Shown here piece after piece: positions 1,362 to 8,910 of a DNA stretch of 8,910 nt. The DNA is from Escherichia coli. GTDB lineage: Bacteria > Pseudomonadota > Gammaproteobacteria > Enterobacterales > Enterobacteriaceae. Within the stretch, counting starts at the first letter, position 1. The number at the start of each line of letters is the position of its first letter. The notes under the pieces were generated by a model. The model searched no databases, was not told the origin of the DNA, and saw only the letters and a program-made list of their open reading frames with translations. Made by a program: the position numbers and the translations under genes. The DNA lies in assembly GCF_044324785.1 (NCBI RefSeq), contig NZ_CP172131.1, one strand, 5' to 3'.

Positions 1362-1389
1362 ATCCTCATCATGTATGAGGATTTTTTTT
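1362..1389 (+). terminator. Rho-independent terminator
   Basis: Perfect 8-bp stem atcctcat/atgaggat (1362-1369/1375-1382), 5-nt loop, then a run of seven T (1383-1389). Confidence 0.7.
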
Positions 1390-1520
1390 CTGGCAAACAG
1401 TATCTTTCAGTAATCCTTGCTCAGTTCCGATTCTGACGTATCCCCGTGTGGATCTGAAAAGGAGATAATTACGCTCTGTGGCCAACAGGAATAACTCAAG
1501 CAGCTCCTCTCTGATACCAT

Positions 1521-1750
1521 CAGAAGAAGCATTAAACGCATTCTGGCGTCGATTACAGAAGAAGCGGAACGCGTTCCAGGCTCCTGTTGCTATACACACT
1601 ACCCACACTAACCCCATGGTTTTTGAGCGCCAGAAACGCGTCCGTATGCGTTTTAACGCGTTCCTGTGTTTTCAGCAAGGCCTGACTGAAGCTAGTTCCT
1701 AGTGCCCTGAACCAACCATTATCCAAAAAAATGCACCGGAAACGCGCTGA
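1521..1750. repeat. Array of at least five AACGCGTT-type palindromic motifs (iteron-like), same motif family as the arms of elements A and B
   Basis: Copies at about 1535-1546 (aaacgcattctgg), 1567-1578 (gaacgcgttcca, centred on the perfect palindrome GAACGCGTTC), 1633-1644 (gaaacgcgtccg), 1655-1665 (taacgcgttcc) and 1741-1749 (aaacgcgct). The 15-mer caccggaaacgcgct at 1735-1749 equals the reverse complement of 374-388. Two direct repeats beginning cagaagaagc sit at 1521 and 1556. Confidence 0.55.
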
Positions 1751-1772
1751 CAACACTTTAGCCTGTCTTTGG

Positions 1773-3326
1773 TTACCATCCCAGCGACGGGCCATCCAGT
1801 GTCCGTTCCTGTATTTCCAGATGGCGCTCACGCTCTAGGAATAGCTCATGTTCACGTTCCTGTATCAGTAGTTCGTCCCTTATCTCCTGCTCTCGCTGTA
1901 TAACTGGCTCAAGTGTTCTGTCTGCTCGCTCAAGTGCTGCACCTGCTGACTCAACTGCATGACCCGCTCGTTCAGCATCGCGTTGTCCCGTTGCGTAAGC
2001 GAAAACATCTTCTGCAATTCCACGAAGGCGCTCTCCCATTCGTTCAGCCGCTGCATATAGTCCTGTTGCAGCTGCTCTAAGGCGTTCAGCAAATGTGTTT
2101 CCAGCTCTGTCACTCTGTGTCACTCCTTCAGATGTACCCACTCTTTCCCCTGAAAGGGAATCACCTCTGCTGATTTCCCGTACGGAAGGACCAGAAATTT
2201 CCTGTTCCCGTCCTGCACGAACTCCACGCCCCATGTCTTCGCGTTCAGTTTCTGCAATGTCTCTTCCTGCTTCCTGATATCTTCCAGGTTCGCCTGTATC
2301 CTCCCGCCAAGATACCAGAGCGTCCCGCCACTCGCGGTAAACAGGAGAAAGACTATCCCCAGTAACATCATGCCCGTATTCCCTGCCAGCTTTAACACGT
2401 CCTTCCTGTGCTGCCTCATCGCCTCTTTCACCCCTTCCCGGTGTTTCTCCAGCGATTCCTCTGTCGAGGCTGTGAACAGGGCTATAGCGTCTCTGATTTT
2501 CGTCTCGTTTGATGTCACAGCCTCGCTTACAGATTCGCCGAGCCTCCTGAACTCGTTGTTCAGCACTTTCTCTGTAGATTCGGCTCTCTCTTTCAGCTTT
2601 TTCTCGAACTCCGCGCCCGTCTGTAAAAGATTGCTCATAAAACGCTCCTTTCAGCCTGATATTCTTCCCGCCGTTCGGGTCTGCAATGCTGATGCTGCTT
2701 CGCGTCACCCTGACCACTTCAAGCCCCGCCTCTGTGAGCGCCTGAATCACATCCTGACGGCCTTTTATCTCCCCTACATGATAAAGAGCGTCTATCCCGC
2801 GTGTGACGCTCTCAGCAAGCGCCTGTTTCGTTTCCGGCAGGTTATCAGAGAGAGTCAGTATCCGGCGGTTCTCCGGGGCGTTGGGGTCATGCAGCCCGTA
2901 ATGGTGATTCACCAGCGTCTGCCAGGCATCAATTCTCGGCCTGTCTGCCCGGTCGTAGTACGGCTGGAGACGTTTTCCGGTCTGTAGCTCCATGTTCGGA
3001 ATGACAAAATTCAGCTCAAGCCGTCCCTTGTCCTGGTGCTCCACCCACAGGATGCTGTACTGATTCTTTTCGAGACCTGGCATCAGTACGCGCTCAAAGC
3101 TCGCCATCACTTTTTCACGTCCTCCCGGCGGCAGCTCCTTCTCCGCGAACGACAGAACGCCTGACGTGTATTTCTTCGCAAATGGCGTGGCATCGATGAG
3201 TTCCCGGACTTCTTCCGGATTACCCTGAAGCACCGTTGCGCCTTCGCGGTTACGCTCCCTCCCCAGCAGGTAATCAACCGGACCACTGCCACCACCTTTT
3301 CCCCTGGCATGAAATTTAACTATCAT
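1773..3326 (-). CDS. mbeA: MbeA mobilisation relaxase (MOBP/HEN family), 517 aa
   Basis: ORF 1773..3374 trimmed to the internal Met giving MIVKFHARGKGGGSGPVDYLLG (ATG at 3326..3324). Carries the catalytic Tyr context PVDYLL and a HEN-type motif (WVEHQDKGRLELNFVIPN). The 517-aa length matches my recollection of ColE1 MbeA, and the start overlaps the mbeC stop as in ColE1. Confidence 0.9.
   Translation of the reverse strand: MIVKFHARGKGGGSGPVDYLLGRERNREGATVLQGNPEEVRELIDATPFAKKYTSGVLSFAEKELPPGGREKVMASFERVLMPGLEKNQYSILWVEHQDKGRLELNFVIPNMELQTGKRLQPYYDRADRPRIDAWQTLVNHHYGLHDPNAPENRRILTLSDNLPETKQALAESVTRGIDALYHVGEIKGRQDVIQALTEAGLEVVRVTRSSISIADPNGGKNIRLKGAFYEQSFTDGRGVREKAERESRIYRESAEQRVQEARRICKRGCDIKRDENQRRYSPVHSLDRGIAGETPGRGERGDEAAQEGRVKAGREYGHDVTGDSLSPVYREWRDALVSWREDTGEPGRYQEAGRDIAETEREDMGRGVRAGREQEISGPSVREISRGDSLSGERVGTSEGVTQSDRAGNTFAERLRAAATGLYAAAERMGERLRGIAEDVFAYATGQRDAERAGHAVESAGAALERADRTLEPVIQREQEIRDELLIQEREHELFLERERHLEIQERTLDGPSLGW
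1880..2113 (-). CDS. mbeD: MbeD-like small mobilisation protein nested out of frame within mbeA
   Basis: 77-aa ORF lying wholly inside mbeA in another frame, the arrangement described for ColE1 mbeD. Start is GTG (2113..2111) with AAGGAG 9 nt upstream; coiled-coil-like sequence. The start-codon choice is uncertain. Confidence 0.6.
   Translation of the reverse strand: MTELETHLLNALEQLQQDYMQRLNEWESAFVELQKMFSLTQRDNAMLNERVMQLSQQVQHLSEQTEHLSQLYSESRR
2120..2638 (-). CDS. mbeB: MbeB mobilisation protein nested out of frame within mbeA, 172 aa
   Basis: ORF inside mbeA in an alternative frame with a perfect SD (gaaAGGAGcgtttt then ATG at 2638..2636); a hydrophobic segment (MMLLGIVFLLFTASGG) suggests membrane anchoring; size matches ColE1 MbeB as recalled. 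Confidence 0.8.
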   Translation of the reverse strand: MSNLLQTGAEFEKKLKERAESTEKVLNNEFRRLGESVSEAVTSNETKIRDAIALFTASTEESLEKHREGVKEAMRQHRKDVLKLAGNTGMMLLGIVFLLFTASGGTLWYLGGRIQANLEDIRKQEETLQKLNAKTWGVEFVQDGNRKFLVLPYGKSAEVIPFQGKEWVHLKE

Positions 3327-3672
3327 CCCGCGCCCCCTGTTCCCTGACGGCCAGACGCAGCCGGCGCAGCTCATCCCCGATGGCCATCAGTGCGGCCACC
3401 ACCTGAACCCGATCACCGGAAGACCACTGCCCGCTGTTCACCTTCCTCGCGGTCTGATTCAGGTTATTCCCGATGGCGGCCAGCTGACGCAGTAACGGCG
3501 GTGCCAGTGTCGGCAGCTTCCCGGAACGGGCAACCGGCTCCCCCAGGCAGACCCGCCGCATCCATACCGCCAGTTGTTTACCCTCACAGCGTTCCAGTAA
3601 CCGGGCATGTTCATCATCAGTAACCCGTATCGTGAGCATCCTCTCGCGTTTCATCGGTATCATTACCCCCAT
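3316..3672 (-). CDS. mbeC: MbeC relaxase accessory protein (ribbon-helix-helix type)
   Basis: ORF with the N-terminal motif MKRERMLTIRVTDDEHARLLERC typical of MobC/MbeC accessory proteins; sits immediately upstream of mbeA and overlaps it by 11 nt. The true start is ambiguous among three in-frame ATGs (3672, 3663, 3654); the longest is given. Confidence 0.8.
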   Translation of the reverse strand: MGVMIPMKRERMLTIRVTDDEHARLLERCEGKQLAVWMRRVCLGEPVARSGKLPTLAPPLLRQLAAIGNNLNQTARKVNSGQWSSGDRVQVVAALMAIGDELRRLRLAVREQGARDDS

Positions 3673-3703
3673 GAACAGAAATCCCCCTTACACGGAGGCA
3701 TCA

Positions 3704-3895
3704 GTGACTAAACAGGAAAAAACCGCCCTTAACATGGCCCGCTTCATCAGAGGCCAGACATTAACGCTGCTGGAGAAACTCAACGAACTGGACGCGGATG
3801 AACAGGCAGATATCTGTGAATCGCTTCACGACCACGCCGATGAGCTTTACCGCAGCTGCCTCGCACGTTTCGGGGATGACGGTGAAAACCTCTGA
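3704..3895 (+). CDS. rop: Rop/Rom, RNA I-RNA II pairing modulator, 63 aa
   Basis: GTG start at 3704 preceded by GGAGG (3694-3698). The translation VTKQEKTALNMARFIRGQTLTLLEKLNELDADEQADICESLHDHADELYRSCLARFGDDGENL matches Rop as I recall it from pBR322 except for one residue (G for S at position 17). Confidence 0.95.
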   Translation: MTKQEKTALNMARFIRGQTLTLLEKLNELDADEQADICESLHDHADELYRSCLARFGDDGENL

Positions 3896-3979
3896 CACAT
3901 GCAGCTCCCGGAGACGGTCACAGCTTGTCTGTGAGCGGATGCCGGGAGCCGACAAGCCCGTCAGGGCGCGTCAGCAGGT

Positions 3980-4050
3980 TTTAGCGGGTGTCGGGGCGCA
4001 GCCCTGACCCAGTCACGTAGCGATAGCGGAGTGTATACTGGCTTAGTCAT
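3980..4050 (+). other. bom/oriT region with predicted MbeA nic site (CTGG|CTTA, nick between 4041 and 4042)
   Basis: Sequence ggggcgcagccctgacccagtcacgtagcgatagcggagtgtatactggctta lies between rop and the origin exactly where pBR322/ColE1 carry bom; tactggctta at 4036-4045 contains the nic motif I recall for ColE1. Boundaries are approximate. Confidence 0.65.
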
Positions 4051-4217
4051 GCGGCATCGGTGCGGATTGTATGAAAAGTGCACCATGTACGGTGTGAAAT
4101 GCCGCACAGATGCGTAAGGAGAACATGCAGATGCCGATGCTCTTCCGCTTCCTCGCTCACTGACTCGCTGCGCTCGGTCGTTCGGCTGTGGCGAGCGGTG
4201 TCTGCTCACTCAAAAGC

Positions 4218-8679: not shown

Positions 8680-8910
8680 TGAACCGCCCCGGAAATCCTG
8701 GAGACTAAACTTCCTGAGAAAGATGTAAACAGGATGACTAAAAATACTCGTTTTTCCCCCGAAGTCCGTCAACGGGCAGTTCGTATGGTTCTGGAAAGCC
8801 AGGGCGAATATGACTCACAATGGGCGGCAATTTGTTCCATTGCTCCAAAGATTGGCTGTACGCCAGAGACCCTGCGTGTCTGGGTTCGCCAGCATGAGCG
8901 GGATACCGGG
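8680..8910 (+). mobile_element. Left end of an IS3-family insertion sequence resembling IS629 (partial; continues past the window)
   Basis: Terminal sequence tgaaccgccccggaaatcctggagactaaacttcctgagaaag starting at 8680 with the 5'-TG typical of IS3-family ends, followed 54 bp later by the orfA start. Confidence 0.8.
8734..8910 (+). CDS. IS3-family transposase OrfA (HTH N-terminal part), truncated by the window end
   Basis: Translation [59 protein letters not shown] is open to the last base; it matches IS629-group OrfA N-termini as recalled. Confidence 0.8.

Follow-up and report, generated by a model that had tools for sequence, protein, structure and literature searches.

Two genes read wholly inside a third, on the same strand and in another frame, make up the core of the mobilisation region described here. 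This region belongs to an 8,910-bp stretch of Escherichia coli DNA (RefSeq assembly GCF_044324785.1, contig NZ_CP172131.1; "the window" below stands for the whole of that stretch), which is a complete small colicin E1 plasmid. The locus is very probably a ColE1-type mobilisation operon running leftwards on the minus strand, in which mbeC is followed by mbeA, and mbeA encloses both mbeB and mbeD. Synonymous-codon shuffles in the two directions, conservation among relatives and the pattern of substitutions all argue that the two overlapping frames are under constraint, as a first-pass annotation made from the sequence had proposed. The nested layout of ColE1 is itself already known, and has been since the 1980s. 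Its original description is said to be that of Boyd, Archer and Sherratt in 1989, who reportedly also found both products in cells. For the plasmid family of pCS36-4CPA, two open reading frames (ORFs) wholly inside mobA and a third that overlaps it in part have been described (PMC5935869), and the nested layout appears again in PMC6118388.

Organization of the operon

The genes of the operon and the overlap that joins the first two of them are as follows, lengths being in nucleotides (nt) or amino acids (aa).

1773-3326, minus strand: mbeA, the relaxase gene and host of mbeB and mbeD (ATG start, 517 aa)
2120-2638, minus strand: mbeB, nested (ATG start, 172 aa, frame +1 relative to mbeA)
1880-2113, minus strand: mbeD, nested (GTG start, 77 aa, frame +1 relative to mbeA)
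3316-3639, minus strand: mbeC, a relaxosome accessory gene of the ribbon-helix-helix type (RefSeq annotation, ATG start, 107 aa)
3316-3326, minus strand: overlap between the stop of mbeC and the start of mbeA (11 nt, ATGATAGTTAA)

When the coordinates were verified on the minus strand, mbeB and mbeD were each found to lie wholly inside mbeA and out of its frame, just as the first-pass annotation had placed them. Its wording of "a different reading frame" can be refined: both nested genes are +1 relative to mbeA and therefore share a single frame with one another, while mbeC occupies the third. The 11-nt overlap that it had noted is also there, with the mbeC stop at 3316 and the mbeA ATG at 3326. 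Upstream of this ATG the mbeA frame stays open as far as 3374, and RefSeq gives the gene identical coordinates in an identical plasmid.

Its recognition of the ColE1 arrangement was equally sound, and the alignment with ColE1 (NC_001371) that it had proposed bears this out. The two regions are collinear, with the same gene order, frames and sizes (324, 1554, 519 and 234 nt for mbeC, mbeA, mbeB and mbeD), the same 11-nt mbeC/mbeA overlap, the same 6-nt gap between mbeB and mbeD, and a GTG start for mbeD in both. Identity to the ColE1 proteins reaches 100% for MbeC, 95.6% for MbeA, 97.7% for MbeB and about 94% for MbeD. The mobilisation genes differ from those of ColE1 by point differences only, whereas the backbone measures 8.9 kb as against 6.6 kb for ColE1. 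The last 35 codons of mbeA, which no nested gene overlaps, are the most divergent part, with 84% nucleotide identity to ColE1 compared to 95-98% for the remainder of the gene.

All four products match curated protein families. MbeA scores 870 bits against the NCBIfam model NF047848 (relax_MbeA_E1, cut-off 500), which is aligned over its positions 1-496 of 497, and it lies above the curated cut-off of the Pfam Relaxase family PF03432. MbeB matches MbeB_N (PF04837; 78 bits, cut-off 22) and is annotated as "MbeB family mobilization protein" on identical plasmids; in a profile search its family comprised 548 representative clusters. MbeD matches both MbeD_MobD (PF04899; 118 bits, cut-off 21.6) and plas_excl_MbeD (NF033829; 119 bits, cut-off 60), and MbeC is above the curated cut-offs of MobC (PF05713) and of a NikA-like family (PF21983). 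The components by which an operon of the ColE1 type (MbeA/HEN) is recognised are thus all present: a relaxase, an overlapping upstream mbeC, a nested mbeB, a nested mbeD and the sequence of an origin of transfer (oriT).

In the relaxase itself, 14 relatives show no variation at residues Y19, H97, E104 and N106. We take them to be the catalytic tyrosine and the His-Glu-Asn signature that replaces the three-histidine motif, an assignment reportedly due to Varsaki et al. in 2003. MbeA is described as being without two of the motif III histidines (PMC3447787).

Both frames are held open

How much does the mere openness of a nested frame say? ORF length alone is weak evidence here, because the composition of MbeA favours long open runs in the +1 frame, and shuffles scored by the length of the longest ORF, the weaker statistic, give P~0.02. 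A span-specific test was thus run in which the mbeA of the window and of nine diverged relatives was shuffled 1000 times among synonymous codons. Shuffled versions lacked +1 stops throughout both nested spans with P=0.001 in the window, the nine relatives giving P=0.000-0.11. In the reverse test, made on ten sequences, mbeB and mbeD were shuffled synonymously and the mbeA frame was scored for stops. Between 2.5 and 8 such stops are predicted and none is found in any of the ten (P<=0.04 each). Taken in the two directions, the shuffles therefore indicate that each frame is held open independently of the other.

The substitution pattern was examined in eight phylogenetically independent pairs, with the following differences per site at the first, second and third positions of the mbeA codons:

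Non-overlapped mbeA N-terminus: 0.034, 0.026 and 0.184
mbeB overlap: 0.126, 0.105 and 0.102
mbeD overlap: 0.082, 0.050 and 0.081
Non-overlapped mbeA tail (35 codons): 0.21, 0.20 and 0.37

The third-position excess of mbeA disappears exactly over the nested genes and is back in the tail. The codon-position analysis that had been suggested as a check on dual-frame constraint has thus come out in its favour. Each difference was then classed, site by site, against a neutral expectation. In close pairs, changes that alter MbeA and are silent in the nested frame reach 1.7-1.9 times this expectation, as compared with 0.9-1.1 times for changes silent in mbeA that alter the nested protein, and 0.7-0.8 times for those altering both proteins. 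For the mbeB overlap the asymmetry has a binomial P=0.01 (close pairs). Since the excess lies in changes without effect on the nested proteins, mbeB and mbeD appear to be more constrained than mbeA over the overlap. Crude omega values, obtained from small counts and from the single-site classification, run the same way: about 0.45 for MbeB versus 0.85 for the overlying MbeA segment, and about 0.36 for MbeD versus 0.64.

Conservation of the nesting among relatives

For comparison, 19 mobilisation regions of the ColE1 family were assembled, namely ColE1 and 18 others spread over the range of identity. Of the aligned relatives, 17 have an intact mbeA (MbeA identity 42-96%; Escherichia, Salmonella, Klebsiella, Citrobacter, Leclercia, Kosakonia, Erwinia and Yersinia). 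All 17 keep mbeB and mbeD open in the +1 frame, and in every one of them, as in the window, mbeB starts exactly at mbeA nucleotide 689. With plasmid pColKP3, an Aeromonas plasmid and a high-GC chromosomal element included, the nested frames are open in 20/20 relatives whose relaxase is intact, some of them only about 50% identical in DNA; in the most distant that keep the nesting, MbeA identity falls to 31-43%.

The first-pass annotation had named stops or frameshifts in the nested frames beside an intact mbeA as the case that would tell against it. No such case was seen in the 20 intact-relaxase relatives, and where a frame is broken it is that of the host. In Enterobacter asburiae p4MO13m20 (L020), an insertion of about 250 nt brings stops after mbeA codon ~172 and leaves mbeB and mbeD intact. 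In Aliivibrio salmonicida pVSAL320 (L024), the N-terminus of the relaxase has been lost beside a Tn3-family transposase, and what remains of the mbeA frame still encloses mbeB and mbeD.

The OXA-232 plasmid pColKP3 (L023, pColKP3_DHQP1300920; MbeA 43% identical) has the nested layout too. Searching it by tblastn with MbeB and MbeD gives no match, and yet it carries unannotated +1 ORFs with the hallmarks of both proteins: an MbeB-like ORF at 1004-1441 and an MbeD-like one at 1442-1714 (oriented), the ATG of the latter abutting the stop of the former. The Aeromonas plasmid has the same nesting. Further away still, a G+C-rich metagenomic contig of 1.5 Mb (L026, ENA ERZ25072670, positions 1385-3357), which holds a distant member of the MbeB family, encodes a MobC/NikA gene, then a relaxase 31% identical to MbeA that encloses MbeB-like and MbeD-like ORFs in +1, and an AlpA-type regulator adjoins. 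This is apparently a mobilisable element that has integrated, and its genes are nested in the same way.

The same nested +1 mobB and mobD are found in other mobA-mobB-mobC-mobD plasmids of the ColE1 superfamily (ColA/ColK-like, pCS36-4CPA, pColKP3, Aeromonas, Aliivibrio). They differ from the window in their central mbeB/linker cassette, which has 26-53% protein identity and a length of 145-186 aa, and in the gap between mbeB and mbeD, which varies from 0 to 60 nt. Among the loci examined there is no un-nested homologue of MbeB or MbeD that would point to the ancestral frame.

A hypervariable cassette and the MbeA linker

Constraint is unevenly spread along the overlap, and one part of it stands out:

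2127-2547, minus strand: hypervariable mosaic cassette (MbeB residues ~31-172, MbeA residues ~260-400)

When the window is compared with Klebsiella pneumoniae p02 (L008) by sliding identity, the two agree at 90% or more up to mbeA nucleotide ~750 and again from ~1200, and at 42-73% in between, where the only island of similarity is the MbeB motif KLNAKTWGV. With limits as sharp as these, most of mbeB seems to have been exchanged by recombination, and the MbeA linker along with it. On the MbeA side, invariant columns are dense up to residue 280, absent from 281-405 and sparse in 406-470, where the conserved columns include D406, R415, R417 and G462.

An AlphaFold2 model of MbeA built from a shallow 14-sequence alignment has a mean predicted local distance difference test score (pLDDT) of 53.7. 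It comprises a folded N-terminal half, a helix at 238-280 and long helices at 407-510. Between them, residues 284-410 have a pLDDT of 25-31 and almost no secondary structure, save one short helix at 329-337. The first ~50 codons of mbeB thus lie over the conserved MbeA helix and the rest over the poorly constrained linker, while mbeD lies over the conserved C-terminal helices.

The model of MbeB, from a 70-sequence alignment, is of another quality, with a mean pLDDT of 92.9. It consists of one long helix (residues 2-134), which contains the hydrophobic stretch MMLLGIVFLLFTASGGTLWYLGG, followed by a small C-terminal beta domain of four strands. The hydrophobic segment and the motifs LWYQG and KTWGV are conserved. 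A Foldseek search of this model against the PDB returned no match with E<1, and hence no clue to function. For MbeD, the heptad-like sequence suggests a coiled coil.

Alternative explanations

Could the nested ORFs be no more than non-coding shadows of mbeA, whose C-terminal half, rich in Glu, Arg, Gly and Ala, seldom yields +1 stops? There is some ground for this in the composition effect already mentioned, which makes long +1 runs fairly likely and leaves the longest-run test at only P~0.02, and in the span test, which gives P~0.1 for three of the relatives (L013, L015 and L018). Composition does not, however, explain why the frames are open in every intact-relaxase relative down to about 50% DNA identity, why the ATG and the Shine-Dalgarno (SD) sequence are conserved, or why curated families match. 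Nor does it account for a wobble position that varies most in the nested frame, for the enrichment of changes silent in that frame, or for the confident MbeB model with its conserved segment and motifs. We hold this explanation to be exceedingly unlikely. The converse proposal, that the long mbeA ORF is an artefact, with a relaxase ending near residue 230-280 and mbeB and mbeD as ordinary downstream genes, draws on the hypervariable segment over mbeB, predicted to be disordered and devoid of invariant columns. It also draws on a rate of doubly non-synonymous changes close to that of changes silent in mbeA only, so that almost no constraint remains at the amino-acid level, and on older annotations in which mbeA is a truncated pseudogene. 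It is nevertheless very improbable. The mbeA frame lacks all of the stops to be expected there from the MbeB and MbeD proteins, the conserved columns of residues 406-470 are modelled as long helices, the 35-codon tail regains the third-position excess of a translated frame, and the NCBIfam model is matched along its full length. The pseudogene calls themselves have been judged to be errors (PMC11229322).

A third explanation accepts both coding frames and changes the way in which the nested one is reached, by +1 ribosomal frameshifting from mbeA, giving fusions of the MbeA N-terminus to MbeB, or by a promoter inside mbeA. The mbeB ATG of the window does stand in a T-rich context (GCGTTTTATGAG), and at 2807-2778, 140 nt ahead of mbeB, there is a sequence resembling a sigma-70 promoter. 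Unlike the SD and ATG, however, which are kept in every relative, the T-run varies, and L010-L012 have GCGCTGTATGAGC in its place; no conserved slippery sequence suggestive of frameshifting was found among the aligned relatives. The promoter match is at chance level, and a promoter there would alter the transcript but still leave two translated frames. We consider this route very unlikely too, and retain a ColE1-type operon in which mbeB and mbeD are initiated within mbeA.

Several points nonetheless weigh against this preferred interpretation. The case for translation of the nested frames is built from their conservation and from matches to family hidden Markov models. The scan for promoters and terminators over 1500-4100 gave a single promoter-like match, at 2807-2778 on the minus strand, as many as chance would give (1 found, 1.1 expected); we infer the single-transcript model. 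The asymmetry of substitutions is not significant for the mbeD overlap (P=0.18), and because the region is a mosaic, its rates are not comparable across segments as though they shared one history. Finally, the MbeA model is poor overall, which makes the disorder of the linker a tentative suggestion.

Start sites, junctions and the origin of transfer

The signals around the nested starts and the presumed substrate of the relaxase are the following.

2645-2650, minus strand: SD sequence AAGGAG of mbeB, 6 nt 5' of its ATG, read from the sequence
2120-2128, minus strand: mbeB-mbeD junction, with AAGGAG at 2123-2128 and TGA at 2120-2122, then 6 nt and the mbeD GTG
4033-4045, plus strand: oriT core motif GTATACTGGCTTA, presumed substrate of MbeA, beyond rop

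The SD sequence of mbeB, which had been called perfect, is indeed AAGGAG at 6 nt from the ATG. It sits within Lys-Gly-Ala codons of the mbeA frame, and both it and the ATG are kept in all 18 aligned sequences, with a core of GGAG, GGGAG, GGGGG or AGGA at the SD position. The AAGGAG that serves mbeD lies inside the last codons of mbeB, 9 nt 5' of the GTG, and most relatives have GGAG and a stop codon ahead of mbeD. Of the 18 aligned sequences, 14 have a gap of 6 nt between the two genes, and gaps of 3 nt and 60 nt occur in two each. As for the GTG start proposed for mbeD, the homologous codon is ATG in 15 of the other 17 sequences in the alignment, which supports the site. The layout of the junction fits with translational coupling.

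At the other end of mbeA, 16 sequences of the alignment keep the junction ATGAT(A/C/T)GTTAA, and the remaining two of the 18 have a GTG start. The start of mbeC is less simple. The right-hand edge of 3672 given by the first-pass annotation has to be given up, as it merely marks where the longest possible mbeC ORF has its first ATG; RefSeq uses 3639. Starts at 3654 and 3672 would each lengthen the ORF, and the ATG at 3672 does not share the mbeC frame in ColE1, owing to an indel of 1 nt. Just upstream of the annotated start there is a basic K-R-x-(R/K) stretch that is conserved in all groups, and in one relative (L016), which lacks the annotated ATG, the start must be 7 codons earlier. On these two grounds, the ATG at 3654 (MKRERMLT..., 112 aa) may be the real start of mbeC.

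The oriT motif GTATACTGGCTTA has a single exact match in the window, where none is expected, and this 13-mer is common to ColE1 and 11 other relatives. We assume it to be the nick region of the ColE1/pBR322 bom site.

A model for expression and function

From this layout we infer a single polycistronic mRNA translated in three frames. Ribosomes ending mbeC would meet the mbeA ATG within the last 11 nt of mbeC, so that the two genes could be coupled. Others would start on their own at mbeB, from its internal AAGGAG-N6-ATG and in a register shifted by one base from that of mbeA, and, once past the mbeB stop, might re-initiate 6 nt further on at the mbeD GTG by means of the AAGGAG in the final mbeB codons. 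MbeA would then act as a HEN-type relaxase that cuts oriT, with MbeC as its ribbon-helix-helix accessory protein. MbeB would be a long-helix protein with a hydrophobic segment resembling a membrane span, and MbeD a short coiled-coil protein with a reported role in entry exclusion. These presumptive roles agree with published ones: MbeA is the relaxase, MbeC its accessory protein and MbeB a presumed component of the relaxosome, and a mild entry exclusion has been described for MbeD (PMC5935869, PMC2831885, PMC11493245, PMC3447787).

The rest of the plasmid

The 2 kb that were queried are 100% identical to the corresponding part of several 8.9-kb E. coli plasmids, for example CP070397.1 and NZ_CP135675.1, and the identical plasmids are typed by MOB-suite as mobilizable, of the MOBP class. 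Besides the mobilisation genes, the plasmid carries rop, a ColE1-type origin and exc-like genes, together with a gene for a colicin E1-like pore-former and its immunity and lysis genes.

Two further ORFs overlapping mbeA were considered as genes and set aside. On the plus strand, an ORF of 205 aa (2370-2987) runs antisense to mbeA; it matches no family, and the points at which the antisense runs break differ among relatives. It belongs to an open antisense run of 277 codons and is most likely a shadow ORF. On the minus strand, a 92-aa ORF at 1553-1831, over the 3' end of mbeA, has no family match either; its similarity in the K. pneumoniae plasmid L008 is patchy, and ColE1 does not conserve it. 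In the window and its close relatives, open runs in the +2 frame of mbeA all stay below 50 codons.

Downstream of mbeA, an AT-rich stretch is flanked by two clusters of the 11-mer CCAGAAACGCG, at 219-434 and 1534-1749 (with a further copy at 1223-1233), in both orientations and with several close inverted pairs. Allowing up to two mismatches, the window holds 13 matches to the 11-mer where 1.95 are expected; the clusters account for 9 of the 13. Finally, an ORF at 8734-8910 on the plus strand reaches the end of the window without continuing at position 1 of the circular plasmid. Its start presumably resembles IS3-family orfA, and since the frame does not continue, it is probably a truncated insertion sequence (IS) remnant.

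Annotation and significance

Nested genes put annotation to the test, and the same DNA has been described in different ways. Records identical to the window over 1700-3720 (NZ_CP135675.1, NZ_CP156709.1 and NZ_CP080168.1, among L001-L004) differ between annotation versions. Older versions of the Prokaryotic Genome Annotation Pipeline (PGAP) list MbeB and MbeD and give mbeA as a truncated pseudogene or a "hypothetical protein", while current RefSeq recovers mbeA by way of an NCBIfam "exception" model and leaves out both nested genes. In one case both versions stand under a single accession. Among the records examined, none has an intact mbeA and both nested genes in one annotation. The same artefact is reported in a study in which 487 such false relaxase pseudogenes were removed from the analysis (PMC11229322). 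As annotation versions keep different frames, gene counts, pseudogene statistics and mobility typing for thousands of small ColE1-like plasmids hinge on the way overlaps are handled.

Small accessory genes lying within a larger gene of the same strand, both being functional, are known elsewhere: mobB lies inside mobA/repB of the IncQ plasmid RSF1010, and Rz1 inside Rz of phage lambda. Their protein families are unrelated to those of the mbe genes, and the likeness would be one of architecture only. Because the architecture described here is the published arrangement of ColE1, its scientific weight is small. What the present analysis adds is a two-way test of selection, the apparently stronger constraint on the nested frames, the mosaic linker predicted to be disordered, the nesting in distant relaxases and the annotation problem. 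With more than 3,000 plasmid records that match it, and about 830 full-length mbeA loci in PLSDB, the locus is also a clean and data-rich natural case for models of selection on overlapping genes.

A broader interpretation can be put forward, to which we would give somewhat less than an even chance. The nested frames would be the primary ones over the overlap, with the MbeA linker a disordered tether dictated by mbeB and simply kept open. The segment 2127-2547 would be a hypervariable, recombining cassette with sharp limits, perhaps one that sets helper or exclusion specificity, and the nesting would be ancestral to the clade of MbeA-type relaxases. If this were true, mbeA and the genes within it would be among the oldest stable gene-within-gene pairs in bacteria, and the reach of the clade would include high-GC chromosomal mobilisable elements.

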